Shown: positions 26,743-54,296, counted from the first letter of the stretch. The stretch is DNA of 64,000 nt from a virus (IMGVR_UViG_3300032233_002657:96001-160000); one strand, 5' to 3'. The notes: generated by a model not told the origin, from the letters alone. Program-made: numbers and translations.

Positions 26743-27132
26743 TTAAGCAGAGATCTGCTTGGCCATAGCCCCATGGTAAGTGAGAACTGCGTCCATTATA
26801 TCAGGCCTTGAAGCTAATTCATAGGAGGCCTTTTTAATAGCGTCGTTTAAATTGCTGTTAGCTGTGGGCGCGCCCATAAGGCCACCCAACTGCTGGTTAG
26901 CTACATTTAAAAAGTTAGTTTGAGCGGAAGCTTGCTTTACGCTTTCTTGAGCGTGAGCTTCTCCAAGACGACCTGCCATCTCTAGAAGGCTGGATACCTC
27001 AGCGTCATTCTGGGGCACGATGTTAAAATCGGAAGCCAGCTTTTCAAGGAATACGGGAATAAATACTTCACGTACAAGAGTAGCGTGCGCAGCTTGAGCT
27101 TGACCCAGCTCTTCTTGCGTTAAATTAGACAT
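26743..27132 (-). CDS. Hypothetical head-associated protein (K-x-A motifs)
   Basis: GGAGG RBS; EKLAS, VKQAS, IKKAS. Confidence 0.6.
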   Translation of the reverse strand: MSNLTQEELGQAQAAHATLVREVFIPVFLEKLASDFNIVPQNDAEVSSLLEMAGRLGEAHAQESVKQASAQTNFLNVANQQLGGLMGAPTANSNLNDAIKKASYELASRPDIMDAVLTYHGAMAKQISA

Positions 27133-27151
27133 TGTCGGCCTCCAGACTTAA

Positions 27152-27182
27152 GAAGAATAGGGGCCACTTAAAAGTGACCCCC
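27152..27182 (-). terminator. Stem-loop after the major capsid gene
   Basis: Minus strand GGGGGTCACTTTTAAGTGGCCCC followed by TATTCTTC. Confidence 0.6.
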
Positions 27183-27194
27183 GAACTGTTAACA

Positions 27195-28124
27195 TTACGC
27201 AAAGTCAACACGGGCAACTGCGTTGGTGTTGCCGATGGCGCCACCAAGAGTTTCATAAGCGAAGAATTCTAACATGTAGGCCTTTCGGTCAACATAAAGA
27301 GTTGTATCTTCGAGGATGAACGACTTGCCCAAGAATTTAGGATCAGCGAACATAAAGATGCTGTCAGTAGGAACCAAGTCCTGCTTGATGGAGATAATCC
27401 AACGAGCATTCATGAAGTTCTGCTCTGACCAGCCGTTCTTGAATACGTCCTGACTGAAGTCACCGCCCATTTCTTCACGACCGAATTTCATCAGTTCGCG
27501 AATAGTAAGGTTGTTGACCAAGCAGGTACCTACTTCAAGGCGGCTAATGGTTCTAGGAAGAACCTTAAACGCATCTTGGAGGGTGTCACGGGTAATACCA
27601 CCGTAGATGGTTTCCCATTGTACCAAGCCGGATTGAGTTACGGTAGCATCTGCTGAGCTTCCCATAGCAGCGTTACACGCTTCAATAAATTTACGATCTT
27701 CTTCCGCTAACATATCCTTAATGGCATTATCCGAAAGGATCTGCCTGATATCCATGCGGTAAGTACGAAGTTCATCTACGTCCTTCGTAAATCGTGGAGT
27801 TACAATGCGGTCAAAGGTAACCCTGTATTTCTGACCACGAATATAAAGGTTCATGGGAAGAGTATTGAATGGGATCGAGATCGCTGCTGGCGAATCAGGT
27901 TCACGTTCAATAATCTTTACAGGCTTATCAGTGTCAACCTGTTGATCAAGGTCATCGTTACTGACCTGGACAGGTGGAAGAATTCTTCGGTAGAAGCCTT
28001 CTTCGCGCATTCTGTAGCGGGTATAGTCAACGACAGCATCAAGTGCTCGTTTTTCCATACCGGGGGTTTCAAGGTAACTGAGGAATGTCTCATTCGTCAG
28101 TTTAGTGTCGTTATCGTAGGCCAT
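27195..28124 (-). CDS. Major capsid protein (HK97 fold)
   Basis: 309 aa; strong RBS, own stem-loop, order protease-scaffold-decoration-capsid; E-loop/spine-helix-like pattern (RIVTPRFTKDVDEL...DNAIKDMLAEEDRKFI). Confidence 0.7.
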   Translation of the reverse strand: MAYDNDTKLTNETFLSYLETPGMEKRALDAVVDYTRYRMREEGFYRRILPPVQVSNDDLDQQVDTDKPVKIIEREPDSPAAISIPFNTLPMNLYIRGQKYRVTFDRIVTPRFTKDVDELRTYRMDIRQILSDNAIKDMLAEEDRKFIEACNAAMGSSADATVTQSGLVQWETIYGGITRDTLQDAFKVLPRTISRLEVGTCLVNNLTIRELMKFGREEMGGDFSQDVFKNGWSEQNFMNARWIISIKQDLVPTDSIFMFADPKFLGKSFILEDTTLYVDRKAYMLEFFAYETLGGAIGNTNAVARVDFA

Positions 28125-28143
28125 GTTAGAGCTCCTCCTAGTA

Positions 28144-28698
28144 TTAGTATCCTGCTTTGCCTGGTTTGTAAACAGTCCAGAACGCTAATACATTATTGCG
28201 ATCTGATTGGCGTTTACGCACGCCTCTAGAAACAACCCCAACTATGTTAGTAGGATTACCTGAACCGGCTTCTGCAGCTACTGTACTGGCGTTGGTCAAA
28301 AGACCAGCGTCGGTGCTGCTCTGGGAGCTGGATTTACAGCGAAGATACTCGTTAGGAGCATAAGTGTTAGCTGAGTCAAACTCAGTGGTTTCCAACTCGT
28401 AAGAGCCAGAGCCTACCAAGCCAGTAATGGTGCCAGTAGGTCCGATAGGATACCAAGTGGTACCGCCATCGTTGCTGACGTCATTATCTGTACCGTTCTG
28501 AAGAAGGAAGATAGGCATCATGCTACCAGTGCAGCCGAGTTCAAACTCGCCTACAGAGTTAATATGGGCACATCGACCAGCATACACACTCACCTCAACA
28601 TTAGCAGATATCTTGGCTGTATAGTCCAAGGCTGCCATCTGAAACCAACCCTTGATCGCATCAAGAGTATGGTCAAACATCTGACGTGGATTTGCCAT
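28144..28698 (-). CDS. Putative capsid decoration/cement protein
   Basis: Gly/Thr/Ser-rich beta protein immediately upstream of the capsid gene. Confidence 0.55.
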   Translation of the reverse strand: MANPRQMFDHTLDAIKGWFQMAALDYTAKISANVEVSVYAGRCAHINSVGEFELGCTGSMMPIFLLQNGTDNDVSNDGGTTWYPIGPTGTITGLVGSGSYELETTEFDSANTYAPNEYLRCKSSSQSSTDAGLLTNASTVAAEAGSGNPTNIVGVVSRGVRKRQSDRNNVLAFWTVYKPGKAGY

Positions 28699-28753
28699 AA
28701 TTTAAGACCTCCGTGTCTGTTTGGCTACCAATCTAGCGCTGTTTAAAATACAC

Positions 28754-29140
28754 CTATAAGCCTAAGTGCTGGCGGAAACGACGATCGGACTCGCGCTCGG
28801 AAGTAGTCCGTCGTCCCACGTATGGATCATTCATCGAGTCGTAATTGTTAGCTTGCTTTTCTGGTTTACCCAGAGCTTTTGGCTTAACAGTTTTACTAAC
28901 GTCCGCAGCCTTGATCAAGATCTCTAAAGCCTTGACATGACTAGTCAAAGCAGAAGCGGCCTTTTCACGGTCAGCTGGGTCAATCCTTTCGAATTGAATT
29001 AGGGCATCGACTGCTTTGGGGAGAAGCTCCCCGATGCGTTCGTCTGCAGCTCTTTTTTCATTGAGTTGCTTTTCAGCTACGTCTAGGGCAGCCTCTACGC
29101 ATTGAATATAGTCGATTGCTTTTTCTGAGAAATTAGACAT
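28754..29140 (-). CDS. Hypothetical head protein (scaffold-like, K-x-A motifs)
   Basis: Helical; EKRAA, IKAAD, EKQAN. Confidence 0.55.
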   Translation of the reverse strand: MSNFSEKAIDYIQCVEAALDVAEKQLNEKRAADERIGELLPKAVDALIQFERIDPADREKAASALTSHVKALEILIKAADVSKTVKPKALGKPEKQANNYDSMNDPYVGRRTTSERESDRRFRQHLGL

Positions 29141-29156
29141 TTAAATAGCCTCCAAA

Positions 29157-30380
29157 TTACCCAATTATGTCACGAACACAAAGTTTGATCTGGTCGCGCA
29201 AGTTACGCTGTTGAGCGGTCTTGGCTTCAGAGAATCTAAATTTGCCAGCTTTGCGATAGGACTGAGCATACTTAATTAAGTTAGTTAAGTCGCGCTCTAC
29301 GCTAGCTTGAGCTGAAGCCATTTTAGCAGCTTCAGGGGGCATTCCAGCTTCAGGTGGCATCATTCCAGCTTCAGGAGGCATTCCGCCTGCGCCGCCGTCT
29401 CCACCTTGTTGAATCATGGCTAACAACTCTGCAGGATCAATTCCTTGTTCCTGAAGTGCCATAAGCAATTCTTGAGCTGCGTCATCAGGGCTAGCGCCGC
29501 CACCAGTATCTTCGCCAGCCATCTGGGCCATCATACCGGGGTCTACTTCCATGCCGCTTTCTGATCCGCCTTCTCCGTGCTCAGCAGACTCTTCCATAGG
29601 AGATTCTGAAGATTCTTCTTCAGGGGCTGCAGCTTCGCCTTCTGCAGCTTTATAAAAAGCTTGAAGGTAGCTTCCAACCATAGCTGCTTTTTCAAGGCCG
29701 TCAGCAATAGTTTGCTCAATAGAGCCAGCTACTACTTCTCTGGCTTGCTTGGAGAACTCATCTTGTTGCTCAGTGGTCAAAGAAGCCGCTGCGGCTCCAG
29801 CTGCCGCCATTTTATCGCAGTCTGCGGCTGGGGCTTTTTTACCCTTCTTTTCATCTATTTTTTTTTGAATAAAAGCTGGCATAGGCTTTGAGCCTGCTGC
29901 TTCTTTCATATTTACAGTGATGTCTGAAAGAATGTCATTAGCCTTGCTGCTGGCCAACTTTCGAAGTTCACCAAAAGACATAGAGCCATACTTTTCGCCA
30001 TCATTAGTCTTAGCTGGGTGGCTAGTACCTGGGTCTTCTTTATCGCTCTTATAGTCATCTTCGCTAGCTGGGTCTTCGCCGGTGGAAGCGCTAGTAATGC
30101 CTACATCGAACTGTTGATCTTCTTGTGAAGGGGAGCTGTCTCCAGCTGCGTCTACTCCACCGTTGAAGATGGTCTTCTTTACATCAGATGTGTTTTCTTG
30201 GGATCGTTTGCCTTCAGTAGCGGGTTGGGTGTTGTCGTCAACATCCTTGCTAGGATGGCTGGTGTCCCCACCTTGGCTACCGGGTTCGGTATTAGCTGCT
30301 GCTCGTTTCTTAACGGAAGCTTGCTTCTCGTTTTCAACTTCAGAAAGAAATTCTCGCAGCTGATCAAATAGCTGAGGCAT
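29157..30380 (-). CDS. Putative scaffolding protein
   Basis: Acidic and low complexity, about 11 K-x-A motifs, PPEAGM repeats; between protease and capsid genes. Confidence 0.55.
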   Translation of the reverse strand: MPQLFDQLREFLSEVENEKQASVKKRAAANTEPGSQGGDTSHPSKDVDDNTQPATEGKRSQENTSDVKKTIFNGGVDAAGDSSPSQEDQQFDVGITSASTGEDPASEDDYKSDKEDPGTSHPAKTNDGEKYGSMSFGELRKLASSKANDILSDITVNMKEAAGSKPMPAFIQKKIDEKKGKKAPAADCDKMAAAGAAAASLTTEQQDEFSKQAREVVAGSIEQTIADGLEKAAMVGSYLQAFYKAAEGEAAAPEEESSESPMEESAEHGEGGSESGMEVDPGMMAQMAGEDTGGGASPDDAAQELLMALQEQGIDPAELLAMIQQGGDGGAGGMPPEAGMMPPEAGMPPEAAKMASAQASVERDLTNLIKYAQSYRKAGKFRFSEAKTAQQRNLRDQIKLCVRDIIG

Positions 30381-30524
30381 CGTAAATTCACTCCTATTTC
30401 GTTGGCGTCGCAGGTAAGGTTACCCTTAACCAAAATTAGTACTGTTCAACGCCTTTAATGATTCTGTACAGTACTTCAAAAGTGTGCAAGACCGTCTTGC
30501 ACTTTTTTTGTATCTTTTTATCTA

Positions 30525-31961
30525 TTAAGCAAGTTGGTTGTAAGCTACAACCGCTCGGCCATAATGGTATTCTTGAGATTTATCTGCAGAAGCAGCCTTT
30601 AACCACTGTAATTGGTGCATGGCATATGCCTTGGCCAAGTCTTCGTGCTTGGAAAAATCTTCTGCATATTTTTCAAGATTTTTTAGAACTGGGCGGGAAG
30701 ACAGGCCAGATATCACGGCTGACCTAACTCCTATCTCCACACTTCTTACATCTACAGAGTGAGCACTGGCGAACTTAATAGCTTCTGAGTGCTGTCTCTC
30801 AGTAGATATAGTCTTAGATGGATCGGTGGATCTATCGCTAGCTAGCTTTTCAATAGTGGAGACGTCTCCAATCAATTTAGTAAACACATTAGGGAGATGG
30901 CGCTTAACTTCAGCTGCTATTTTTTCTTGGCCTTTAGCTGATAACCAGTCTTCCAAAGATACAAGAATACCTTGCTTAGCGCATGCTGCCCAAGGGTAGA
31001 TCCCGTTTATGGAGCTTTGCTTCCAGAAAGGAAGAGGCTTTACTCTTGCAGATACAACTGCCATAAGGACTGGGCTGCACACTCCAGCTGATTTCTCTAA
31101 GTTAGATAAACTTCTAGCTATCTCAGCTAGTTTTACGGAGCCTTCAGAAAGATCACCGGATAGTATGCTGTCCGATGCTCCTACTCCAGCTAACTCAGCA
31201 AGTTCTGCTCCGCCTACTACGCACAAGCCAGAGGCAGCTTTATAATGACCAACTACCCAGGCTATTCGGTCGGCTGGGCGGTAAACGTCGCTTATGTCGA
31301 ACCAAGTCGGGTTCGGGTTATCAACATGAAGAACGTGGCCGTCTTCTGCAACTTTAGTAAGGTTAAATTTGCAACCGCCGTACTTGCACATATCTTCTGT
31401 GCAGTACTCATCTCTATTCTTTGCTTTATTGCCGCATCCGGAACACACATCATGGGAAACTCTGCAGGCCATGCTTACGCCCCAGTTGTCATCCCCCGAA
31501 GCTATCTTCTGCATTTCTTTATCGGCTACTAATCCTTTATTTCGATCTGCTGCTTCCTTAGTAGCGTTAAGAGCTACGATGAGCTCTACTCGTTTCATCT
31601 TATCGTTGAACATGGAAGCCTTAACCATACCGTAGCTTTTTTCAGTGTCTTTGTTTTTGTGGTTTCTGTACCACCGAGCGTGCTTAACAAAAGTGTCATG
31701 GTACTTACGGCAGGTGGCTTCTTTAAAGCCGTCACCGTTGCGGTTAGGGCCGTATGCCTCTGTAGAACCTATAGCAATCATATGAATGGGTTGTTCGCCT
31801 GGCTTAAACTCTATTCCCCTAAGGAGGTGAGCAGCTTCGTCTCCAGCCCTCTTTACAAATGAAGAAAGATCGTGACCAACCAATCCTTTGGAGGATACTT
31901 TAACTATAGAGCTAACGGAGTCTCCGAAGCTCTGCGAGTTAGGGGCTATGATCTTAATCAT
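30525..31961 (-). CDS. Putative prohead (maturation) protease
   Basis: GPNRNGDGF, YRNH and VSMAC...CSGCG motifs resembling large-phage prohead serine proteases; C-terminal half rich in K-x-A. Confidence 0.6.
   Translation of the reverse strand: MIKIIAPNSQSFGDSVSSIVKVSSKGLVGHDLSSFVKRAGDEAAHLLRGIEFKPGEQPIHMIAIGSTEAYGPNRNGDGFKEATCRKYHDTFVKHARWYRNHKNKDTEKSYGMVKASMFNDKMKRVELIVALNATKEAADRNKGLVADKEMQKIASGDDNWGVSMACRVSHDVCSGCGNKAKNRDEYCTEDMCKYGGCKFNLTKVAEDGHVLHVDNPNPTWFDISDVYRPADRIAWVVGHYKAASGLCVVGGAELAELAGVGASDSILSGDLSEGSVKLAEIARSLSNLEKSAGVCSPVLMAVVSARVKPLPFWKQSSINGIYPWAACAKQGILVSLEDWLSAKGQEKIAAEVKRHLPNVFTKLIGDVSTIEKLASDRSTDPSKTISTERQHSEAIKFASAHSVDVRSVEIGVRSAVISGLSSRPVLKNLEKYAEDFSKHEDLAKAYAMHQLQWLKAASADKSQEYHYGRAVVAYNQLA
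30856..30871. repeat. Dispersed palindrome, copy 4 (GTGGAGACGTCTCCAA, 15/16)
   Basis: Read directly. Confidence 0.85.
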
Positions 31962-31963
31962 TG

Positions 31964-32977
31964 TTAGTCCTCTTTTTTGTAGTAGTTGCCCATATAGTTG
32001 CTTACTGGCCCGCTTGCAAGAATGGCCAGTAACGCTCCGGGTATTCCACCTACGCCTGACCGAGTCCAGCCACCTGGCTTGCCGTTTAAGGTCTGCCCCG
32101 CGGTTCCCTTAGTAGCTAAAATTCGATTAAGATCATCTCTAAGCCCTGGCAGTTTATTTTGATTATGCTTTAATACTTTTAAGGCCTCTCCATAATCGTA
32201 GCCTTTCTGCTTAAAGGCTTGATGTGCAGCCTGATTAGCCTCAAATGCCTTAAACGCGTCAAGTTTTCCTGGGTAAGCCGCTGCGTCTCTAAGATAGTTT
32301 TTGTAGATTGCGGAACTAGGGGAGTAGGGCATGCCGGTTGCTTTAAGTGGATATATAGGCTCAGCCCCAGGATTAGCGACGGCTCGCATCCTAGCTGGCT
32401 CAAGCCCTGGGCCTACTGGCCTAGGAGTATTAAGTATGTCTTGTATCTGCGATTTGAGGCCAGTTGCTTCAGGGTTCTGAAAGTTAAACAGGCCTCCGGC
32501 AAGTCTTTTTCCAACAACGTAGCCGCCTGTGCCAGCCAGTGCAGCGTTGCCTGGAGCGGCCATTATACCGGCCCCCGCTAAGGCTGCTTCATTAGCAAGG
32601 GTATCAAGAGGGCCATTAGGCTTACTCTCACTTAAAGATCTTACTGTGTCCGTCCAAGATTTTTCTGTGTTCTTATTTTTGTCATCCTTCTTAGAATCCA
32701 TTTCTGTCATTAGCCCACCTACAGCTGCTCCTGGAAGAGCGCCTATAAGGCCGCCGTACAGAGCGTTCCTTAAATTTAATTTTTTACCTTTTAAATAGTC
32801 GTACCCGAGGGTGCCTAGGCCCCCTACTCCAGCTCCAGCTAAGGCGCCTAACGCGGAGTTTGTAAGTATGCCAGCCTGCTTATTCATCTTAGATTTTTGA
32901 GCTTCTACGTACATAACCGCTAATTGGTTACTTGCTTCTGAGGCTGTCTTACTGAATATGCTATTATCTAGGCTCAT
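31964..32977 (-). CDS. Glycine-zipper protein with K-x-A motifs (putative internal/ejection protein)
   Basis: FSKTAS, NKQAG, followed by GALAGAGVGGLG and GGLIGALPGAAVGG. Confidence 0.6.
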   Translation of the reverse strand: MSLDNSIFSKTASEASNQLAVMYVEAQKSKMNKQAGILTNSALGALAGAGVGGLGTLGYDYLKGKKLNLRNALYGGLIGALPGAAVGGLMTEMDSKKDDKNKNTEKSWTDTVRSLSESKPNGPLDTLANEAALAGAGIMAAPGNAALAGTGGYVVGKRLAGGLFNFQNPEATGLKSQIQDILNTPRPVGPGLEPARMRAVANPGAEPIYPLKATGMPYSPSSAIYKNYLRDAAAYPGKLDAFKAFEANQAAHQAFKQKGYDYGEALKVLKHNQNKLPGLRDDLNRILATKGTAGQTLNGKPGGWTRSGVGGIPGALLAILASGPVSNYMGNYYKKED

Positions 32978-33033
32978 GACTTATGTGTCCCTTAAACAAA
33001 ATAAAATATTAGGTTGTCGTCTAATCAGTAAAC

Positions 33034-34419
33034 TTAAAGCCCTACATCAGACCCGCCGCTGCTGTTTAGCTTCTTCCTAAAATTAGATGTATGCGCTCTA
33101 GTTTTCTCTATGTCCAGCATTTGCTGTACATCAGATGGATCTATAGCTGCGTTTCCGCCTTCCAATCTTTTTCTAAGCAGTGGTCTCATTATGGCTGGAT
33201 TAGAAGAAGCGTCTGGGGCTATGTGGCTTACTTCGTTAAAGTGGAAAGCCACGTCTTCAGGATGGTGAGCGCCTATGACGTCGTCATTTGCCATAAGGTC
33301 TGACAAGGCGGTACTGGCTCTTATGTTTTTTAAAACTAAGTCCTGAACCATCTGGTCATTTTTAAACTCTAAGTTACCTATGGCGTCCGCGTTACTTTCT
33401 GGGCCTTTGGTATTAAGCAAGTCTTTAGAGGCGCTGTACATACCACCAGCTATTTGATTAGACCTGTTAGTCAATCTTCCAAGCCCTTTTGCAACAGCCC
33501 CGCTGCCGCCTTCTGAGTCATCTTCGGCTGCTGTCTTAATACCGTCCATAACTGACCCTGTGTAGTCAACAGGAAGAGACTTAGCGAATGCTGAAGATAT
33601 GGCTGAATTTATATCTTTAGATATGTATGCAGCAGCTGCCTTTTTATTAATGTGAGTAGAAGCCAGCTCCATACATTCCTGTATGGTTCTGTAAGGCTCG
33701 CACTTGATGTCGACCGCGGCGTTTGCTTCCGCCACGGTGCCAGCCTGTTTCTTAAGAGCCTTATTGGAGCCTGATAGAATATCTAAAAGGGCCGCAGCTT
33801 TCTTGCCGAACAATTTAGAGCTGTTATCCTTAGCCACGCTAAATGGAACACTTCCAAAGGTTCTAAAATAAGAAGCTAACTTGGATATCCCTTCCATCAT
33901 TTTGTCTTTATTATTGGCCGAGTCCATTCTCAGCTTTTCTACGTTTCTTCCCATCTTCTCTATAAGGGAGCTAACGGCTCTAGTGTTACCTAATTGATCT
34001 TTGGGCATGGCAGCATAGCTTCCTTTGTCGGAAGCTAATTTTGCCAAGGGCTTTAATTCAACTGACTTAGAAGCTGGCTTGTATTTGTATATGTCAGATA
34101 TGGCTGCTTCTTTGAGCATGCTGGAAGCAGTTTTAATAGAGTCTGGGTACACCAGGCCTATAACTGTCTTAAGGTCAGCAAGTTCAAACTCAGCCAGCTT
34201 TTCCATAGGGTCTTCCCCTGATTGGCGCTGGGCTTCGCTTCTGCCAGTGTTGTAAGCTCGAACCATAAGCTCTAAATGACCAACGGGAACCCCGTTAGCG
34301 GAAGCTGTTTTAGATATGGCCTCATTCGGGGATAAGCCAGAGTTTACTAACTCTGCTACCTCTCCTAGAGAGTCGGTTATCTTGGTTTCGGCTTCTTTAC
34401 TAAGTCGTTGCGCTGCCAT
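33034..34419 (-). CDS. Hypothetical K-x-A-rich head/core protein
   Basis: About 12 K-x-A motifs in 461 aa. Confidence 0.6.
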   Translation of the reverse strand: MAAQRLSKEAETKITDSLGEVAELVNSGLSPNEAISKTASANGVPVGHLELMVRAYNTGRSEAQRQSGEDPMEKLAEFELADLKTVIGLVYPDSIKTASSMLKEAAISDIYKYKPASKSVELKPLAKLASDKGSYAAMPKDQLGNTRAVSSLIEKMGRNVEKLRMDSANNKDKMMEGISKLASYFRTFGSVPFSVAKDNSSKLFGKKAAALLDILSGSNKALKKQAGTVAEANAAVDIKCEPYRTIQECMELASTHINKKAAAAYISKDINSAISSAFAKSLPVDYTGSVMDGIKTAAEDDSEGGSGAVAKGLGRLTNRSNQIAGGMYSASKDLLNTKGPESNADAIGNLEFKNDQMVQDLVLKNIRASTALSDLMANDDVIGAHHPEDVAFHFNEVSHIAPDASSNPAIMRPLLRKRLEGGNAAIDPSDVQQMLDIEKTRAHTSNFRKKLNSSGGSDVGL

Positions 34420-35344
34420 CGGCTGAGGCCTCCGGTAATTTAGTGCCTACTAGACGCTCTAGTATAGTTGTGTCCCCGCCGGCTATAAGCATAGCCTCTT
34501 CAGCTCTGGGTTCTGCTGCGTTAATATCCTTACCAACCCATTCGAGTGTGTTCTTGTTATTTGAGTTGGAGCCTGTCGTCACAACTGTGGACATGGCCTC
34601 CATGAAATAATTAAGAACATTGCCGCTATCCGCCCCGCCTTTATAGGATGAGGAATCTGCAGCTATCTCCTGCTCCTTCTGATGAAGTTGAAGAAGCTGT
34701 AGCTGATTCCAGCTGTTAGCCGCAACAATCTTAGAGCTCTGAAGATTCTTTCTTAGAAGGTTAGCTGATATTTCTGAATGGGCCCACTTATTCGTTTCAG
34801 GGTCGGCTCTATGGTGTATAAGCCAGTCAAGCTTTTCGGCTCCGTATAAATACCCATAAAACTTCCACAAAATATCAAGGTCCCTTTCAGAGGCTCCTAG
34901 GAATGCGTTCTTGCCTATGGCAAAGTGCATGACCCAAGAAGCGTTATCTATTCTATCCGATACATTAAAGAACAGACTTTCATACCATTTTATGCATTTA
35001 GGTGATAGGTTAGTCATCTTTGAAATAACCAAGATGTCTGTTCTAGCTAGAATCCTAGCTTCTAATTCCCACTTTAAAAGCTTGGCTTCTTGCCTGCTGT
35101 ATACCTCATAAGCATCGGCTAAGGCTTGGTTAGCCATACACTTAGCGCAATACTCCCAAGCATCTTCGACTTTGTCTATCATGCTAAAAAACTTCCAAGC
35201 CGCTTGCACGAACTTATCATCTTTAAACCTGTCAGGGTTCTTGCTAGAGGTGAAGAGAGCTACAGCGCGCTTCCACCTCCAATCCGTAGGCCTGGTAGGG
35301 CTGGATTTTCTTAAGTTCACATATTCAGCAAGGCTGGCTTCCAT
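34400..35344 (-). CDS. Hypothetical protein
   Basis: 314 aa, Trp-rich and helical; overlaps both neighbours. Confidence 0.6.
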   Translation of the reverse strand: MEASLAEYVNLRKSSPTRPTDWRWKRAVALFTSSKNPDRFKDDKFVQAAWKFFSMIDKVEDAWEYCAKCMANQALADAYEVYSRQEAKLLKWELEARILARTDILVISKMTNLSPKCIKWYESLFFNVSDRIDNASWVMHFAIGKNAFLGASERDLDILWKFYGYLYGAEKLDWLIHHRADPETNKWAHSEISANLLRKNLQSSKIVAANSWNQLQLLQLHQKEQEIAADSSSYKGGADSGNVLNYFMEAMSTVVTTGSNSNNKNTLEWVGKDINAAEPRAEEAMLIAGGDTTILERLVGTKLPEASADGSATT

Positions 35345-35775: not shown

Positions 35776-35787
35776 TTATAGCTCCAT

Positions 35788-38199
35788 TTACACGTTGTTA
35801 TCTTCAAGGCTTATGCCTTCATCGGGATACGAGTCTATAGTCTTCTGCTTCAGGAACAATAGTAGATCGCCCATCTGCTCAAACGAGTTTCTAAGATTAT
35901 CTTCAAGTTCTGGCATATCCTTCTTACCGTACCGGTCTTCAAACTTATCTTTGTGCCAGTAGAAGCTAAACAAAATCCTACCAATCTTATCTAGGCCGCC
36001 CATGAGGTCTCCTAGATGTCTATCGACCATAGTGTCGTCTCTAACTGACTTTATAAGAGTGCCTATCATAGAAGTATCAAATACTTCTTTTTGTCCTGAC
36101 TGAGCGGCGTTGTATCCTATAGCCATGGTCTTAGGATCAGGTAGCCTAGGGTCGTACAAAGCGGTATTAGACTGAAGCGACGTCCCTGCCATTGCAGGTA
36201 TAGCCTGCTGCATAGGGTAAGAAGACTGCACGCTTCCTAAAAGAGTTTGTTCCATACCCGTTGGCTGAGTTGGAAATGCTGGAGCCGTGGTGCCGCCCAT
36301 CATGCTTGGGTCCATAGGGTCGCCAGGAGCAGCTGACTTTATTAAGTCTCCTGCGTCTTCTTTTACTGGTTTGTGAATTATGTAGTTAGCAACCTTAAGG
36401 GTCTTAGCTTCGTCTAATATAACTCTAGCCTGCTTTTCTCTAAGAGCTACGTCCCTAACCAAGTGTATAAGCGCGTTCTGTGGGTCTAGCACTCTGCCGT
36501 TAATGCTAACTTCAGAGCCAGTGTGCCTTACGTTTAATGAGGCCGTCTTCTGATAAATAGCATGCTGAAGATCGTTAAGATCGCCTGGGACTATAGCCCC
36601 ATCCCCGCAGCAGCTGTCTCCGCTCAGCTTTACAGCTTTAAAATTGCCAGGAATGTAAAGGTCACCGTTAATAGACTTAATTCTCACACCTGGCTTGTCA
36701 GTTACATATAAATTCTGCCCTGCACCTATGTGAGACATGCCCCCGCTAAAATCACTATAAGCTCCTTTAGCCACGGCAGGAAGGTACTTTGGTCTAGCTT
36801 GAGAAGCGTAATCAAGGTATCGCACCTTGTAGCCACTAGTGCCGTCAGAATCCCCCATTACCTTTAACACTTCAAACGGAACGCTGGCGTCGCCGGTTTC
36901 ACTAACAGCTAAATAGACATTCCCCTTTGATAAAGACGAAAGGCTAGAAAGCTCTTCAAAAAACTTGGCAAAGCTTTGGCCGCTATTTTTACTTTCAGGA
37001 GCGTCTTGGCCCCCATCTCTTGGCGGACGTGTAAACAAGTTACCTGGGTGACTGTTAATCCAGTGCTTCTCACCTGTGTAGTTAACTACAGTGGCGAAGT
37101 CATGGCGCCCTGAAGGGCCATGAGGCATAAGGAAAATTATGGTCTTAAGCATGGAGAAAGGACAAACTAAAAGATCATAGACACCGGTAGAAGCAGGATT
37201 CTCTATTGAGGTAGGTTCCTGCACTTTGTAAGCGATAGCCGTGTCGTCTTTTGTCCTAGCGTCTCTAAATATAACCCCGTCTGTAAGGAGTTTTTCCTTA
37301 TCAGCTTTTGGAGAATCCATAACTCCATCTGAAGAAGCGTTGAAACTTCTGATCATGATGGTAAGGGCTTTCTTTTCCTGAGGCTTAATGTATACGTCTT
37401 CTTCAGACAGAATACCAGGCTCTGGAATGCTTTTAAGCTTATCGACAGCATTCTTTATAAAGTCAGACCCGTAAACTTTTTCAATAGCTTCTGCCATCTT
37501 TGGAAACTGCTGGCATGTACCTATAAGAGCTTTAACTAATTCTTTAAACGCTTGCTTACCATGAGCTGCTTCTTTAGTAAGAAAAGATTTAAGAGTAAGG
37601 GCGTTATTAAACTTTGGATCGTTGGAAGGATTGGTGCAAGCAAACTTAGCAAAGGATCTTACTCCTTCGCGCATCTCGTCTTTATCTACTGCTGATGCAA
37701 ACTTAGCAGGTGGTCGGCTGAAAGCTTGCAGGTCAGGTGAAAGAAATCCTAGTCTAGCCATGTTCTGATCTGTCTTCTTTCCTAAGCTAGCAGGCTTACG
37801 TCGTAGAATGTAGTTAAGCCAGTTTTCTTTAAGTGGCACAAACTGATCTTGGTCTTTAAGGTAGAGCAGCTCATGGCCTTTAAGATCGCCATTAATAAAA
37901 AATACAGGGGCGTAAAGCCATTGAGGCCCAACCTTAAATCCAAACAAGCCAACAGCTTTGGTGTTGTCTTCGTTGCGTTCCATGAGCTCGAAGCCTACCT
38001 CATAGTCGAGTAGGCCTGGGGCTTTGTCTTTTAGATAGGCATGCGCAAGGTTGCTAAATGCCTGTTCAAACTGAACATCGTTTCCAGCCCCTCCAAGCTC
38101 GGCTTTTTTTACGAAGCCTGCAATAGGTGGGAGAGGGTTCAGAAAACTATTACTTTTGTTGCTCATGTTCTTAACCTTCCAGGGCTTAGAAAATAACAT
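35788..38199 (-). CDS. Large hypothetical virion-associated protein
   Basis: 803 aa; K-x-A motifs (VKKAE, TKEAA, QKTAS, IKSAA) and PMDPSMMGG; the start may instead be at 38166. Confidence 0.6.
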   Translation of the reverse strand: MLFSKPWKVKNMSNKSNSFLNPLPPIAGFVKKAELGGAGNDVQFEQAFSNLAHAYLKDKAPGLLDYEVGFELMERNEDNTKAVGLFGFKVGPQWLYAPVFFINGDLKGHELLYLKDQDQFVPLKENWLNYILRRKPASLGKKTDQNMARLGFLSPDLQAFSRPPAKFASAVDKDEMREGVRSFAKFACTNPSNDPKFNNALTLKSFLTKEAAHGKQAFKELVKALIGTCQQFPKMAEAIEKVYGSDFIKNAVDKLKSIPEPGILSEEDVYIKPQEKKALTIMIRSFNASSDGVMDSPKADKEKLLTDGVIFRDARTKDDTAIAYKVQEPTSIENPASTGVYDLLVCPFSMLKTIIFLMPHGPSGRHDFATVVNYTGEKHWINSHPGNLFTRPPRDGGQDAPESKNSGQSFAKFFEELSSLSSLSKGNVYLAVSETGDASVPFEVLKVMGDSDGTSGYKVRYLDYASQARPKYLPAVAKGAYSDFSGGMSHIGAGQNLYVTDKPGVRIKSINGDLYIPGNFKAVKLSGDSCCGDGAIVPGDLNDLQHAIYQKTASLNVRHTGSEVSINGRVLDPQNALIHLVRDVALREKQARVILDEAKTLKVANYIIHKPVKEDAGDLIKSAAPGDPMDPSMMGGTTAPAFPTQPTGMEQTLLGSVQSSYPMQQAIPAMAGTSLQSNTALYDPRLPDPKTMAIGYNAAQSGQKEVFDTSMIGTLIKSVRDDTMVDRHLGDLMGGLDKIGRILFSFYWHKDKFEDRYGKKDMPELEDNLRNSFEQMGDLLLFLKQKTIDSYPDEGISLEDNNV

Positions 38200-38251
38200 A
38201 GAGCCATTATGCTCTTTATTTGTTAATTCTGCAACGCTTACGATAAATTTA

Positions 38252-40546: not shown

Positions 40547-40548
40547 GA

Positions 40549-40767
40549 TTACCCTCCAAGTGTTATTTTCTTTATTCCCGGTGGTGTTATTCCGTTTTGC
40601 TCTAAAGTATCTGCAAAACTGGAGTCGGCGGCCGTAACGCAGGTTATTACAGAATCTGAATTATCTAGGAACAAGGCTATAGGGTTATTTAAGTTGTCGT
40701 AAATAACTAGCCTTGTTGCCTTTGCCGGTGGAGTCTTATCAAAAAAATTATGATAATCAAGAATCAT
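40549..40767 (-). CDS. Small hypothetical protein
   Basis: Tightly packed between its neighbours. Confidence 0.55.
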   Translation of the reverse strand: MILDYHNFFDKTPPAKATRLVIYDNLNNPIALFLDNSDSVITCVTAADSSFADTLEQNGITPPGIKKITLGG

Positions 40768-41371
40768 GTCTATTGGTCTTTCTCAAAAGGTCCATTATAC
40801 CAGCTGCTTTTTCAGCAATCTCATGTTTAGAAAAACCTGCTGTCTTTGGGGCTGGTGCTGGTGCTCCAGCGGAAGGATCTCCGCCTTGAGGCTGAGGTTT
40901 ACCTTGTGAAGAGTCATCTTTATTCTGGCTTGGGGCTTCGTCAAGAATGTCATGAGGAAGGTTTATGCCTAGGGAAGAATATAGATGGGTTAACAACTTT
41001 TGAATACGGCGCATAAACATTTCAGTGTTCTGCCCGTTATCTGATTTCTTTCCAGCTCCTTTGTTTCCCTTTACTTCAGCTAGAGCTGTCTGCAGTTCAG
41101 ACTTAACTACAGCTCTAATTTGTTCAGTAGGGTCTTCTGGAGGAGGCGCGCCCCCCATCATAGAGGGATCCATAGGTGGTGCTCCCCCCATCATAGAAGG
41201 GTCCATAGGAGGCTGACCGCCCATCATTGATGGGTCCATAGGTGGTGCGCCTGGAGGAGCACCTCCAGCCATAGCCGGGTCCATAGGAGGTTGGCCGCCG
41301 CCCTCAGGGGGCATGAAGGCCGACTTGATGCTCAATTGAGCCTGCTTTAATAGATACTTATTAATTGCCAT
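40757..41371 (-). CDS. Pro/Met/Gly-rich protein with K-x-A motifs
   Basis: LKQAQ, IKSAF, PKTAG, EKAAG; tandem GGAPPMDPSMM. Confidence 0.65.
   Translation of the reverse strand: MAINKYLLKQAQLSIKSAFMPPEGGGQPPMDPAMAGGAPPGAPPMDPSMMGGQPPMDPSMMGGAPPMDPSMMGGAPPPEDPTEQIRAVVKSELQTALAEVKGNKGAGKKSDNGQNTEMFMRRIQKLLTHLYSSLGINLPHDILDEAPSQNKDDSSQGKPQPQGGDPSAGAPAPAPKTAGFSKHEIAEKAAGIMDLLRKTNRHDS
41142..41302 (-). repeat. Coding tandem repeat, ~33-bp units encoding GG(A/Q)PPMDPSMM
   Basis: About 4 imperfect units visible in DNA and protein. Confidence 0.75.
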
Positions 41372-41423
41372 GATAACTCCTAGACACTATGGGTTGCTTA
41401 CATTAAGGCCGCAGTAGAGTACG

Positions 41424-42053: not shown

Positions 42054-42145
42054 CTTGCTCTCCCATGTAAAATAAAATACTTATATAAGACTATAACTTA
42101 CTACTTACGCCCTTAGCTACCTCATTATTTAAAAACAGTGTGTAA

Positions 42146-45634: not shown

Positions 45635-45637
45635 GGG

Positions 45638-50092: not shown

Positions 50093-50093
50093 T

Positions 50094-51131
50094 TTAGTCC
50101 TTATTAATTAGCCGCTTTAAAGCGTTTCTAGCGGGCTTTATAGAATTTTTAGCTTTGTTAATTCTTACAGGAACTGGAACAGAGTAGATGGGCATGCCTT
50201 CAGCATTGCGCCTTGAAAGAAACTCATTAAGGTATCGCTCAGAAGCTAAACGCTCTGGATCGTTTTTCTTTGCTTCTCTATACCCTTTTACGGTTCCTGC
50301 AGTGCCTAACCCTAAAGTTAAGGCGCCTAAAAGTCCGGCGTACCCTTTAAATGCTTTGTCAGCATTGTTAAGCCCGTAGGCCAGGCCTCCTAGCGCGTTT
50401 GAACCAGCACCTACAACTCCTTTGCCTAAGGATAAAGCGCCTGACATTAAGTCAGCCCCTAGGTCAGCAGATTTTTCAAGGTTGTTTTGCCCTACGCAAG
50501 CCTCAGCTAGCTTCTCTAGGTCTGCAGCTAAAGAAGACATCTCAGAACTTGCTGCCTTTTCTGCTACGGCCCTTTCAGCCGTAACAGGTCGGTTTAATCG
50601 GTTGGAGTGTGACTCTATGAGAGCTTCCCCAAACTCTTTCTTGGCTTCTTCTAGCTCTGTTAAATGATCTTCTTTTATTTTGTTCTTTAAAACGTAGTTC
50701 AGCAGCATGTTGCTGCCTATAGCAGGACCGGCGGCCGAAGCTACAATAGCTGGTAAATAGTAAGGGTTAGTTAAAGATTTTAAACTAAACGCAGTCTTTA
50801 CATCGCTATGAGATGATTTCTTTTCTGTGTCCTTATCTGGAGCTTCGGCCAAGTCTTGACTAGGCTTAAATGTTTGTAGCTTTTTAGCTTTTCCTTTAAA
50901 CCTTTTCTTTCTTGTTTTTTCGAAGAAGTCACTTGTAGAAGGCAGAGCCTCTTGGCCGGGAACCGGTACTTCTATTACAGGGGAGCCTATGCTCATAACT
51001 TTATCTCTAAATAGGGCGCCAGGTCTAAGGTATTTGCTCAGCGCTACAGCAGATCCTCCAAGAAGGCTAGCTAGGCCCAACCGCTTCATGTCGAAGATTT
51101 CTTCGGGACTGAACAATGATTTCTTAAGCAT
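50094..51131 (-). CDS. K-x-A / glycine-zipper membrane-type protein
   Basis: VKTAF, EKAAS, EKLAE, EKSAD; hydrophobic segment YAGLLGALTLGLGTAG. Confidence 0.6.
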   Translation of the reverse strand: MLKKSLFSPEEIFDMKRLGLASLLGGSAVALSKYLRPGALFRDKVMSIGSPVIEVPVPGQEALPSTSDFFEKTRKKRFKGKAKKLQTFKPSQDLAEAPDKDTEKKSSHSDVKTAFSLKSLTNPYYLPAIVASAAGPAIGSNMLLNYVLKNKIKEDHLTELEEAKKEFGEALIESHSNRLNRPVTAERAVAEKAASSEMSSLAADLEKLAEACVGQNNLEKSADLGADLMSGALSLGKGVVGAGSNALGGLAYGLNNADKAFKGYAGLLGALTLGLGTAGTVKGYREAKKNDPERLASERYLNEFLSRRNAEGMPIYSVPVPVRINKAKNSIKPARNALKRLINKD

Positions 51132-51485
51132 CTAACTTCTCCTGTTTGGCGCCAGCTTTCCTTGAACGTCAGCCCACTCCATGTGAATGCTAAGCTTTTT
51201 ATCTTCAGAGATAATCTTAGTCCTGTCGATTATAACACAGGCCCTGTTGGCGGCTAAGTCTCTAATCTTCGTGTATTCCTTAAGGTCTTCAGGATTACTA
51301 AGGTCAAATATCTTTACTTTAACGTCATACTGAAGAGGTATATTTTCATACTCCTCTTGAGTAGTGTTTGGGGCCATTGGGCCTCCTAAAATAGGAAAAC
51401 CCTGAGACGTCGTCCCAGTGGTCTGCCTATATTTAACTCCTACACCACCTAATCCAAACTGACTTAAAATAGCGCTGTCTCTCAT
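51132..51485 (-). CDS. Hypothetical protein
   Basis: 117 aa in operon. Confidence 0.6.
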   Translation of the reverse strand: MRDSAILSQFGLGGVGVKYRQTTGTTSQGFPILGGPMAPNTTQEEYENIPLQYDVKVKIFDLSNPEDLKEYTKIRDLAANRACVIIDRTKIISEDKKLSIHMEWADVQGKLAPNRRS

Positions 51486-51495
51486 GGTCGTCTTT

Positions 51496-52458
51496 CTAAT
51501 ATCGGGTTATTCCGGACATACCTCTATCACGAGCTCTTCGACGTCTTGTGAGTTCGGCTTGCCGTTTAATAGTTTCGGCTTGCCTATCGTATTCATTTAT
51601 AATTTCTTCTTTCAAAAGATCATCTTTATCTGGCAGTGGAGCTTTAAAAGCTTCGTGAATGCCAGGGCCTACTATGTTCTTACCGGCGTAATAACCGCCG
51701 CCAGCTGTTAGTGCTGCGGTTCCTAAAGCAAGAGCCGGTACTGTGCGTATTAGTTCGCCTAAGGCTGCCAAGTTTGCCTTCTTCTCTACAGCATGCAAAG
51801 CCTGCTTTACTCTTAACTTTATCTCATCGATAGTAAGTCCGTCTTCTATGCACTTAGCTAGAAAGGCTACTTTGAACATTTGTTTGTCAGTCATAGCTGA
51901 TCCTTGCTTATCGGCCATAGGGGCTGACGTGGGTGTAGCTGAAGGGGCTGGGGTAACAGAGGGAGCGATAGGGGCAGGGGCTGAGCCTACTGCGCCCATA
52001 GGGGCCGGGGTTGGAGACGGGCTAGGAGCTGGAGATGGCACTGCTGGCGGTACGTACCCAGGAGACCCTTCGACTAAATCATTTTTGTGAGGCAACCATT
52101 TTTGATTTTTTCTGTCCCAGCCTATGTTGGTATCTAGCGCTTTAGTCTTCTGTGGATTACCGGCAAACCTTTTATAATCAGAGGCGTAGGTTTGGAATTT
52201 CATGTTATCAGAATTTTTGTTAGCTGCCCCTAGCTGCAACCCAAGAAGGGTAGCATGATAACTGTTAGGGTTGTCCCACTCTGCCTGGGGTATTCCAAAC
52301 TGATCTGTTATCTTTTTTTGCAGGCTAGGGTGGAGATCCGAGAAGTTCGCCCGCCCTAGCTCTACTCCTCCGTTATTGGCGGCGTACCTGGCGGCTGAGG
52401 CATGGACCTGATCGGGTGTTGATGGTCTTCTTTGTGGGACGGTTACTGGGTTAGGCAT
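51496..52458 (-). CDS. K-x-A protein with Pro-rich linker and hydrophobic helix
   Basis: PSPAPSPSPTP linker; FKVAF, EKKAN; ALALGTAALTAGGGYYAG. Confidence 0.6.
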   Translation of the reverse strand: MPNPVTVPQRRPSTPDQVHASAARYAANNGGVELGRANFSDLHPSLQKKITDQFGIPQAEWDNPNSYHATLLGLQLGAANKNSDNMKFQTYASDYKRFAGNPQKTKALDTNIGWDRKNQKWLPHKNDLVEGSPGYVPPAVPSPAPSPSPTPAPMGAVGSAPAPIAPSVTPAPSATPTSAPMADKQGSAMTDKQMFKVAFLAKCIEDGLTIDEIKLRVKQALHAVEKKANLAALGELIRTVPALALGTAALTAGGGYYAGKNIVGPGIHEAFKAPLPDKDDLLKEEIINEYDRQAETIKRQAELTRRRRARDRGMSGITRY

Positions 52459-52462
52459 GATG

Positions 52463-52831
52463 TTATCCTAGTATAATTCCTGAGTTAGTTACGCCCTTCT
52501 CTACGCTAGCCCCGGTTGACCAAATCTTTCGGTTGTCGTGCGCTAATTGCTTAGCTACTCTAGGATCCGTAGGATCCCCTTGCTCTTTGGCTTCCTGTAC
52601 ACACAGCATAATATCCCTAGCTGCTGAAATCAACTTTTGCTTGTCGTCATAGTGTTGAGCCCTTGAGGCTTCTTCAAATAAAGCCTTAGCTCTCTTGCGC
52701 ATGACCGCCGTCGGTTCTACTTTAGTTGACCCGTCTCGCCCGTCGTAAATGTTAACTAGACCGTGCTCGGCCCAAAACTCTATTTGGTTATACTTGTAAG
52801 CTTTTTTAGTATTTATAACCGGAATATCCAT
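52463..52831 (-). CDS. Hypothetical protein
   Basis: GAGGA RBS; 122 aa. Confidence 0.6.
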   Translation of the reverse strand: MDIPVINTKKAYKYNQIEFWAEHGLVNIYDGRDGSTKVEPTAVMRKRAKALFEEASRAQHYDDKQKLISAARDIMLCVQEAKEQGDPTDPRVAKQLAHDNRKIWSTGASVEKGVTNSGIILG

Positions 52832-52894
52832 GTGGTCCTCTTTTCCTATTAATTAAGAATAATACACTAATCTAACTAGCATGTCACCTAGTAT

Positions 52895-54190
52895 TTAGTG
52901 CCCGAACAGGCCCGGCACTATGGTTTTTATAGCCCCAGCCATAATCCCAGCGTTCTGTAATGTACGCTGCGCCTGAGGGGTAAGCCCAGCCAAAGCTCCA
53001 AGGACTTTACCGCCAATGGTTGCCTGTGCATAGCCCGCTCCCATTCCTATTCCTATTTTAGCTATGTCCATGGGGGTTATGAATCCTGAGCTGCCGTTGA
53101 GAGTATTAGCTGCCCCTACGATACCCATTGTGGCGGCTTGCATGCTTGAAGAAGAGAACGGGTCGCCCATGACTACTCTGTTAAAGGCATCCACAGGAAT
53201 AGGGGCTAAGTAAAGAGAGTCACTGTTGCCAAAGAAGTCGGCTGCCTTCTTCATCTCGTCAGAAATCTGTGGCTGTATATCTGACAAAGAGTCAGAGGCT
53301 TGTTTTAAATTAGAGTTACCAAATAAGACGTTTGGTCTTATAAAAGAGTTAAATGAGGTTCTGTGCCTATCTGGGTTAGATGGGTCGTCCCAATTAGACA
53401 TGCCTACGCCGCCTAGCGCAGCCCCAGGCAGAGCTCCTAACGCTCCTCCAAGTACAGCTAGCCTTTTTCGAAGCTTCCCCTTTTCAAAGACCTCAGGGGC
53501 AAACGTTTCAGCCAAAGCACCTGCTCCGTACCCTAGACCCGCAGTTAAAGCTCCACCGGCTATCATAGATGCCAACGGAGTGGCTCCGCCTATGGCGTCG
53601 GTAAAACCAGATGGCTTTATCGCAAATGCCTGAGCCATCGGGCCAGCTACACTTGATATGGTTGTAGCAGACTTCACTAGTATCCAAGGGCGGTTTAAGT
53701 TAGGGCGCCCTATCTTATGATGAATTCCATTTTTCTCTAAAACTGTGGAGACGTCTCCACTCGGAATGGCTCCATAATCGTCCACTAAAACCTTGTCGTT
53801 TAATGGGCTTACCCAAGCTCGCATATTTGGAAGAAGCGCCCTTGCAACCTTTTCAAAAATAGATTTTGCAGCTGATGTGTAAGTGTTGACAAGCTCAGGC
53901 ACATAGCTCCAGGATAAATCTGATGAAATTTTATTTAAGGCTTCTTGCCTCTTTATCGTATAAGGGATAATATCTCTTGGAGCGTGGACTTTGAATGATG
54001 TAGGCACGTGCGTAACTCCCACAAATTTCTTGTTAAGATCGGAATCTATGAGGAAATCTTCAGGTCTGCTCATAAACAGATTCCTTAATATTTTGTTCTT
54101 CTCATGATAATTTTTACCGTCCGACATGGCTTTTGCTTGCAACAGCAAATGAAGGTCGGCTTTGGGGTTGCGTTCTACCTGTGGCTGCAT
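52895..54190 (-). CDS. K-x-A / glycine-zipper membrane-type protein
   Basis: GGAGG RBS before the ATG at 54190; VKSAT, LKQAS, KKAAD; several GxxxG hydrophobic segments. Confidence 0.65.
   Translation of the reverse strand: MQPQVERNPKADLHLLLQAKAMSDGKNYHEKNKILRNLFMSRPEDFLIDSDLNKKFVGVTHVPTSFKVHAPRDIIPYTIKRQEALNKISSDLSWSYVPELVNTYTSAAKSIFEKVARALLPNMRAWVSPLNDKVLVDDYGAIPSGDVSTVLEKNGIHHKIGRPNLNRPWILVKSATTISSVAGPMAQAFAIKPSGFTDAIGGATPLASMIAGGALTAGLGYGAGALAETFAPEVFEKGKLRKRLAVLGGALGALPGAALGGVGMSNWDDPSNPDRHRTSFNSFIRPNVLFGNSNLKQASDSLSDIQPQISDEMKKAADFFGNSDSLYLAPIPVDAFNRVVMGDPFSSSSMQAATMGIVGAANTLNGSSGFITPMDIAKIGIGMGAGYAQATIGGKVLGALAGLTPQAQRTLQNAGIMAGAIKTIVPGLFGH
53745..53760. repeat. Dispersed palindrome, copy 7 (perfect)
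   Basis: Read directly. Confidence 0.9.
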
Positions 54191-54296
54191 TACAAAATCC
54201 TCCACCCCGATAGTAACAACTATTAGCTCTTCAAGCCATAGTTGATACTGTGTATGCAGGAATTACTTAACTTAGGTGAAATAGGAGATTCAGTAA

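Follow-up and report, generated by a model that had tools for sequence, protein, structure and literature searches.

A Lys-x-Ala motif in the head genes of a large uncultured virus as the probable substrate code of its prohead protease

The virus recorded in IMG/VR as IMGVR_UViG_3300032233_002657 carries a short protein motif, Lys-x-Ala (K-x-A), that recurs in the products of its head genes. The window analyzed here is the whole stretch of 64,000 nucleotides from base 96001 to base 160000 of the 181,489-bp record, and its genes lie on the minus strand nearly throughout. It contains a head module, in which the gene of a predicted prohead protease sits beside the genes of a scaffold-like protein and of the major capsid protein, as well as genes for a multisubunit RNA polymerase and a helicase. 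Five genes of unknown family lie between the protease gene and the gene for the C-terminal part of polymerase subunit beta', two small genes separate the latter from the helicase gene, and five further genes of unknown family follow from the beta-beta' fusion gene up to 54205. The motif is concentrated in the block 26743-41371 and is probably the code by which the protease recognizes its substrates. Positions are those of the window unless the genome is named, and proteins without a family name are called by the first base of their gene.

Expected counts were obtained by shuffling each protein separately with its composition kept, and the bias of a motif picked by eye was countered by scoring each of the 400 possible residue pairs with a spacing of 0, 1, or 2. 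In the block 26743-41371, K-x-A occurred 79 times against 37.6 expected (z 7.5) and ranked first of the 400 gapped dipeptides, with the runner-up at z 3.4. The adjacent pair K-A (37 vs. 36.8 expected) and the wider K-x-x-A (35 vs. 36.9) were flat; local composition is therefore not the cause, and an artefact of that kind is ruled out. With a small residue next, K-x-A-[S/A/G] reached 42 against 10.3 (z 10.5), and K-x-A-S 21 against 3.2. Hydrophobic residues (Phe, Leu, Met) are preferred at the second position ahead of the Lys and Glu or Ile at the first, and the extended form [LMFIV]-x-K-x-A-[SAG] was counted 18 times in the block (2.5 expected) and 28 times in the other 186 genes (17.1 expected). 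Five proteins were individually significant for K-x-A (29157, 30525, 33034, 35788, and 40757), while three small head-block proteins, including 26743-27132 and 28754-29140, were weaker. Genome-wide, six of the ten significantly enriched genes fall in this block.

The remaining genes of the window behave differently. The tail genes below 26743 are slightly under expectation for K-x-A (40 vs. 47.4) and close to it for K-x-A-[SAG] (13 vs. 11.6), and a Lys/Ala-rich tail protein of 1575 amino acids (aa) has 14 copies of K-x-A where 16 are expected. The genes from 41424 to 54205, which encode RNA polymerase, helicase, and other proteins, hold 7 K-x-A-[SAG] against 8.3 expected and are not enriched. 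The sequence-only reading that first drew attention to the motif had spread it over about 27 kb. This extent holds for 26743-41371 (about 14.6 kb) and fails for the remaining 13 kb or so; the examples quoted in that reading were all found in the genes named, all on the minus strand, and the enrichment it proposed over composition-preserving shuffles, head against tail, was recovered. Its remark that the motif often lies close to the N-terminus was also borne out, as K-x-A occurs within the first 45 residues in 14 of 19 consecutive genes (26379-50092) against 45 of 183 elsewhere in the genome (Fisher p 3e-5).

The codons at the motif are diverse: Lys is written AAG 23 times and AAA 19 times, much like the background, Ala uses all four codons, and Ser uses both TCN and AGY. 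This diversity rules out a motif at the DNA level. Within this genome, BLAST detected no similarity among the carrier proteins and there are no internal repeats, which excludes paralogy and repetition as the source. Varied codons, carriers that are not paralogues, and flat neighbouring spacings all point to the protein level, and the counts support K-x-A as a selected protein-level signal tied to the genes of head morphogenesis.

Conservation was compared closely with three related viral contigs, in which the capsid protein is 94-98% identical and the scaffold-like and 33034 proteins are 51-69% identical. The motif lysines were invariant in 56 of 66 cases, compared with 80 of 148 for the other lysines of the same proteins (Fisher p 1.3e-5); among close orthologues of 33034, the figures were 71% and 19%. 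Lys and Ala are kept while the residue between them changes freely (KQAS/KSAS, KKAS/KQAS/KTAS), so that K and A of the motif are under purifying selection and the middle residue is not. At identities of about 30-50%, fixed K-x-A columns persist in the protease, 33034, and scaffold-like families, and conservation of motif position, which the sequence-only reading had named as a check, is seen in several families. In a logo built on 15 conserved sites with 1,407 instances, P5 is L/A/F/I, P4 is E/V/I/T, P3 is K, P2 is free, and P1 is A, and the P1' residue is A, S, or G in 73% of these instances.

Table 1. Genes and predicted protease sites of the head block and the adjoining polymerase region (window coordinates).
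Feature	Position	Strand	Remarks
129-aa gene	26743..27132	-	downstream of capsid gene
HK97-fold major capsid protein	27195..28124	-	309 aa
184-aa gene	28144-28698		directly upstream of capsid gene; zero K-x-A
128-aa gene	28754..29140	-	between scaffold-like and capsid genes
Scaffold-like protein	29157..30380	-	407 aa; immediately downstream of protease gene
Predicted prohead protease	30525..31961	-	478 aa
Protease site K241-A-A-S244 (predicted)	31230..31241	-	disordered linker from catalytic domain to C-terminal helical domain
Protease site K37-R-A-G40 (predicted)	31842..31853	-	near protease N-terminus; K.A[SAG] at this column in 98% of 117 homologues
337-aa protein	31964..32977	-	two N-terminal K-x-A sites
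All-helical head-block protein	33034..34419	-	461 aa; no family match
Head-block protein	35788..38199	-	803 aa; weakly related to Arash virion protein gp218 (BLAST)
RNA polymerase beta' C-terminal part	38624-40546		640 aa; Rpb1 domain 5
204-aa protein	40757..41371	-	5 K-x-A sites
SNF2-type helicase	42146-45634		between the two RNA polymerase genes
RNA polymerase beta + N-terminal beta' fusion	45638-50092		1484 aa

The gene order of the module (33034, 31964, protease, scaffold-like protein, two small genes, major capsid protein) is the same in the phages Arash, D181, G, Myrna, and Stormageddon. Among cultured phages, Salmonella phage Arash and the Vibrio phages D181, D148, and D69 are the nearest, with 36-38% identity in the protease domain. 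Judged by the protease, Bacillus phage G (gp19), mycobacteriophage Myrna (gp97), and some Gordonia and Rhodococcus phages are more remote. No family turned up in PHROGs, Pfam, or NCBIfam for 29157, 33034, 35788, 31964, 34400, 40757, or 52895, and a protein atlas search returned nothing usable for 52895 or 35788. A portal gene was not located, as the portal protein of Arash, gp204, had no BLAST match in this genome. The 184-aa gene occupies the position of Myrna gp98, which was reported as a minor capsid protein (PMC7150772).

The protease was modelled with AlphaFold2 from an alignment of 36 homologues, with a mean predicted local distance difference test score (pLDDT) of 76 and values of mostly 70-90 in the blocks of the N-terminal domain. 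The model consists of a mixed alpha/beta N-terminal domain, a disordered linker at residues 230-254 (pLDDT below 50), and a helical C-terminal half. [quoted passage not shown] Foldseek agrees (5jbl, probability 0.90), and the model supports a gp21/assemblin fold for the N-terminal domain, at about residues 16-228. H60 and S163 are invariant in the 36 homologues and H209/H212 are at least 90% conserved; these putative catalytic residues follow the His-Ser-His order of the assemblins. Between S163 and H209/212 lies an insertion with five cysteines (C166, C173, C176, C187, and C192; 31386-31466), all invariant in the 36 homologues, which may bind zinc. We know of no such insertion in T4 gp21. No Pfam or NCBIfam family, among them S77, S78, U35, and S21, matched the protease, the sole family match was the unnamed phrog_2774, and a search of PDB sequences with the protease profile gave only a spurious SMC match.

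The protease itself carries 14 K-x-A, where 4.6 are expected. In a family alignment of 117 homologues (42-97% identity), the columns at its two predicted borders are nearly fixed. The first, K37-R-A-G40, has equivalents in Arash gp222 (residue 30) and D181 protein 277 (residue 27) and is the predicted removal site of an N-terminal propeptide. The second, K241-A-A-S244, is represented by K-x-A at residue 241/242 in 93% of the homologues and is predicted to be a self-release site, by analogy with the herpesvirus R-site. K-x-A is also found at residue 135 in 88% of the homologues. Among close relatives, 78-98% of the N-terminal domain is invariant, as against 10-55% of the C-terminal half; in this fast-evolving helical half, K-x-A occurs at residues 277, 290, 347, 372, 396, 431, and 455, and all motif lysines are conserved.

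The capsid protein, which matches phrog_2522 (major head protein) and NF042927 (HK97-fold major capsid protein), contains a single K-x-A, K25-R-A27 (nucleotides 28044-28052), from which a propeptide of about 27 residues is predicted. All members of the clade share this column in the context GMEK[R/Q/V/K]A[L/I]D, again with a free middle residue. The same column reads GLVKEAGA in Arash gp226 and GLTKEAGA in D181 protein 282, capsid proteins that are 29-30% identical to that of the window. R-V-A occupies the column in phage G, and the capsid N-termini of Myrna and Stormageddon hold R-F-A and R-V-A, respectively.

The other carriers are led by the scaffold-like protein, 29157-30380, a label inferred from its gene position and composition, as it has no PHROG, Pfam, or NCBIfam match. 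It contains 12 K-x-A (4.3 expected), and its conserved sites are K19 (EKQAS), K189/190, K244, and K353 (KMAS). Among 117 sequences of the family, these are kept in 100%, about 100%, 92%, and 91%, respectively, and the mean load is 10.5 K-x-A per protein against 5.0 expected. The site at K353, PKMA[S/A]A, lies about 55 residues ahead of a conserved basic C-terminal domain. Protein 33034 holds 14 K-x-A (5.2 expected), and its 12 K-x-A-[SAG] sites all lie in residues 37-297, whereas the C-terminal 160 residues or so have none. In its family (117 representatives with a mean pairwise identity of 30%), 11.6 K-x-A are found per protein and 3.7 are expected; the column is kept at residue 37 in 97%, at residue 74 in 87%, and at residues 96, 127, 224, and about 302 in 73% each. 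The AlphaFold2 model of 33034 is all-helical (pLDDT 82) and had no fold match in a Foldseek search of a viral library.

Protein 35788 has 14 K-x-A (5.4 expected) in two clusters, at residues 31-276 and 478-621, and 13 of the 14 motif lysines are invariant in four orthologues compared with 63% of its other lysines. In 31964, only FSKTAS (residue 10) and MNKQAG (residue 33) occur, and both fit [LMFIV].K.A[SAG], of which 0.21 are expected. The K-x-A of 40757 (1.65 expected, p 0.008) are conserved in orthologues at residues 16, 176, and 188. The gene 26743-27132 has three K-x-A-S (residues 31, 66, and 100; three K-x-A vs. 0.9 expected), all conserved in four orthologues, and 28754-29140 has four K-x-A (1.6 expected), all conserved.

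Beyond the window, each of seven neighbouring genes (genome 171162-176903) opens with a leader of 18 residues that comes in two related forms, MNRFEKAAxFGAxMGKxA or MRxFxK[IL]AxLHxxFFKRA, with K-x-A at positions 6 and 16. The leaders end in [M/F]-[G/F]-K-x-A, and the similarity among the seven genes stops directly after the second Ala. The densest motif load of the genome is found in a 371-aa protein (genome 57510-58625, plus strand), also outside the window and far from the head block. It has 15 K-x-A, nine of them K-x-A-[SAG] (1.15 expected) and six in the extended form; it may be a further scaffold or internal head protein that is coded apart from the head module.

The same footprint is present in other genomes that encode a homologue of the window protease. 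K-x-A ranks first of 400 in the head modules of Arash (46 vs. 21.2, z 6.0; L-x-K comes second, matching the P5 preference), D181 (51 vs. 22.6, z 6.8), and phage G (44 vs. 20.8, z 5.5). In the GC-rich Myrna, R-x-A ranks third and K-x-A fifth, both raised. Myrna gp97 (L021 6914-10549), annotated in GenBank as a tape measure protein, starts with a homologue of the window protease domain and lies between the portal and major head genes; it is more likely to be a protease-scaffold fusion like Stormageddon gp13. The identical test was applied as a positive control to T4 genes 20, 67, 68, 21, 22, 23, and 24. The gp21 code of T4, (L/I)-x-E, is known by experiment, and in these genes I-x-E ranked first to second and L-x-E third (z 3.1-4.5), with K-x-A at ranks 16-25. 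As the control recovers the known code, a real prohead-protease code leaves such a footprint, and that of the window is stronger.

The RNA polymerase and the helicase stand apart from this pattern. K-x-A is enriched neither in the beta-beta' fusion nor in the C-terminal subunit of beta' nor in the helicase, where it is, if anything, depleted (4 vs. 9.9 expected). The polymerase was rejected as a substrate, being unenriched and having an N-terminal K25-L-A that is missing in three relatives; so was the helicase, which is also unenriched and whose K-Q-A-[D/E]-L, though conserved, is in relatives just three residues away from the protein start. In Arash, the counterparts of the polymerase subunits and of the helicase are among the most abundant virion proteins by mass spectrometry (PMC10585845). 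By analogy, this suggests that the multisubunit RNA polymerase of the window virus is packaged in the head. Polymerase and helicase are probably both packaged, with no sign of K-x-A processing. It had been proposed from the sequence that the protease processes a large packaged proteome at K-x-A; the gp21/assemblin fold, the motif signal in the head genes, and the placement of the sites support the part on the head proteins, which may be processed in this way. The polymerase, the helicase, and the genes 50094-54205, which are unenriched and whose single N-terminal K-x-A sites do not convince, have to be taken out of it.

The reading that best accounts for these results is that [L/F/I]-[E/V/I]-K-x-A, followed by S, A, or G, is the substrate code of the prohead maturation protease 30525-31961, to which we assign a probability of about 0.7. 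The enrichment, the conservation, the positions of the sites, and the modelled fold of the protease were observed, and from them we infer the cutting itself, the bond at which it takes place, and the fate of the fragments. The capsid protein, the scaffold-like protein, the protease, and several internal proteins would co-assemble into a procapsid, the protease being carried in by its own scaffold-like C-terminal half, by analogy with T4, phiKZ/SPN3US, and the herpesviruses. It would then cut at the motif sites, most likely between Ala and the next small residue. A cut after Ala is suggested by the alternating specificity at P5, P3, and P1, by the small P1', and by the leader of the seven genes, which ends at Ala. 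The protease would free its catalytic domain at K37 and at linker K241 and trim about 27 residues off the capsid protein. The scaffold would be severed from its conserved C-terminal tail at K353 and fragmented, and the motif-dense regions of 29157, 33034, 35788, and the small proteins would be chopped to short peptides able to exit before DNA entry. In 33034, residues 1-297 would be fragmented, leaving the motif-free C-terminal domain of 160 residues. Comparison with known systems supports this reading, as the sites lie where a prohead protease would be expected to cut: at the capsid N-terminus, at the flanks of the protease domain, many times over in scaffold-like proteins, and ahead of the scaffold tail.

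Several observations weigh against cleavage. The conserved sites 80, 93, 135, and 152 are inside the catalytic domain of the protease, where they may be structural rather than cut, or may serve self-inactivation. Likewise, the highly conserved sites 37, 180, and 259 of 33034 are inside confidently predicted helices, and at P1' the capsid protein of this clade has Leu or Ile in place of S, A, or G. The motif-rich proteins of Arash were all detected in virions (PMC10585845), so they are not fully expelled. No report of a neo-N-terminus, a processed band, or activity was found for any member of the protease family; the Arash virion proteomics (PMC10585845) gives protein-level values only, and its main text does not mention a protease. 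Table 2 of that study lists 100% 'coverage' for proteins with only two unique peptides; this column is therefore not sequence coverage and is unusable for inferring missing propeptides.

For these reasons (sites within helices and folded domains, Leu/Ile at the capsid P1', and detection in Arash virions), an unlikely but still live alternative is that K-x-A-[S/A/G] is never cleaved and acts as a docking or assembly motif. It would contact the inner surface of the capsid, the portal, or the protease and so recruit proteins into the procapsid. Some of the most conserved sites do lie in confident helices or in the folded protease domain, the scaffold-like proteins of Arash and D181 hold the motif in longer repeated helical units (ELVKEAS, LEKAAAV), and the motif-bearing proteins are present in Arash virions. 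Docking, however, leaves unexplained the sites that flank the protease domain in a disordered linker, the leader that ends exactly at Ala, and the presence of 10-14 copies per protein. The alternation of P5, P3, and P1 with a free P2 is that of an extended, strand-bound protease substrate and not of one helix face, and exactly such a footprint is what the T4 control yields for a cleavage code.

It is very improbable that the K-x-A sites are cut by another enzyme, be it a host protease or a second phage protease. There is a precedent in staphylococcal phage 80alpha, where a host protease trims the proteins of capsid and scaffold. The K-x-A motif, however, tracks the protease family across Salmonella, Vibrio, Lysinibacillus/Bacillus, Mycobacterium, and an uncultured freshwater host, the protease bears it at both borders of its own catalytic domain, and the analysis found no pointer to a host or second phage protease. 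The weakest explanation, a chance effect of Lys/Ala-rich helical proteins (the carriers contain 7.6-8.9% K and 8-14% A), can practically be dismissed given z values of 7.5-10.5 in within-protein shuffles, the flat neighbouring spacings, the unenriched 1575-aa tail protein, and the first rank of K-x-A in three other genomes.

Prohead proteases that use a short code together with address-tag propeptides are already well known, and it is the Lys-x-Ala code that departs from the Glu-specific codes of T4 and phiKZ. T4 gp21, the best structural match of the window protease domain, likewise uses a three-position P3-x-P1 code that is repeated in scaffold and core proteins, at the capsid N-terminus, and in the protease itself, and short common leaders that end in the motif are found on cargo genes of T4 as well as of the window genome. 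Nevertheless, no sequence similarity between the two proteases was detected (BLAST E >1), P3 and P1 are Leu/Ile and Glu in T4 but Lys and Ala here, and the window protease differs by its Cys-rich insertion and its helical C-terminal half of 240 residues. The predicted capsid propeptide, unlike that of T4, is only about 27 residues long.

The proteases phiKZ gp175 and SPN3US gp245 cut at S/A/G-x-E or A-x-E, and in SPN3US, propeptides with several A-x-E motifs are cleaved to fragments (PMC10052503). Like the window virus, phiKZ and SPN3US are large myoviruses that have many head proteins and a multisubunit RNA polymerase, which is packaged in the virion (probably so in the window virus); several motif copies in long propeptides and a preference for Ser at P1' are further common features. 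The P3 and P1 residues are different, the polymerase subunits of the window show no sign of processing, unlike those of phiKZ and SPN3US, and the cleavage sites of these phages are proven by mass spectrometry, whereas those of the window are predicted.

The consensus of the herpesvirus assemblins is (V/L/I)-x-A|S, and the predicted scissile pair of the window, Ala-Ser, is the same. The two share a fold superfamily (VZV, Z 5.9; HCMV, Z 4.2). The herpesvirus protease, which is fused to scaffold, has two sites of cutting, an R-site within the linker and an M-site ahead of the capsid-binding scaffold tail (PMC4498786). The assemblins pUL26/pUL80a thus resemble the window protein in the fusion of an N-terminal protease to a scaffold-like region with an R-site-like linker site, and the window scaffold has an M-site-like motif right before its C-terminal tail. 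The differences are a hydrophobic P3 in herpesviruses and Lys here, far more sites per protein here, and a bacterial virus as the bearer. A nested in-frame scaffold copy of the herpes type is also lacking: the C-terminal half of the protease has no BLAST similarity to the 407-aa scaffold-like protein, and the two are encoded by separate, non-overlapping genes. Phage G gp19, Myrna gp97, and Stormageddon gp13 (PHROG 2774) are homologues of the window protease domain with 27-30% identity, and the head modules of such phages show the same enrichment of K-x-A (K/R-x-A in Myrna). Their C-terminal extensions differ widely in length (300 to 1211 aa in total).

To our knowledge, experiments have established the cutting rules of prohead proteases in only a few phage lineages. 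When the rule is missing for a new phage, the mature forms of its capsid, scaffold, and cargo proteins are unpredictable. A 2022 preprint on actinobacteriophage capsids, for example, states expressly that the cut site of the delta domain is not predictable (10.1101/2022.09.09.507160). In the literature reached, there was neither a K-x-A rule for a phage capsid or protease nor a published specificity for any member of this family: the megaphage paper contains no cleavage data, the jumbo-phage review does not cover prohead proteases, and the cryo-electron microscopy papers on Myrna give no N-terminus. If true, the K-x-A rule would be a new cutting rule for a large family of phage proteases that has no curated name. 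It would annotate propeptides, mature N-termini, and probable head-packaged cargo in a very large uncultured freshwater and marine clade of phages of roughly 180-230 kb, in the cultured Arash and Vibrio D-series phages, and probably in the 0.5-Mb phage G and the cluster C mycobacteriophages. It would also bear on how the maturation proteases of phages and herpesviruses evolved in their specificity.

A wider and distinctly more tentative proposal is that the whole family, to which phage G gp19, Myrna gp97, and Arash gp222 belong together with over 1,000 metagenomic homologues, shares a basic-x-Ala code followed by a small residue, that this code is nearer to the ancestral assemblin specificity, and that it became a portable tag in this lineage. 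If this were so, the scissile pair would be the Ala|Ser of the herpesvirus assemblins, the code may be nearer to the ancestral specificity than the Glu-specific branch of T4 and phiKZ, and an 'address plus cut-here' tag, as in the 18-residue leaders and the multidomain proteins delimited by K-x-A elsewhere in the genome, would load new cargo into the head and release it in pieces.

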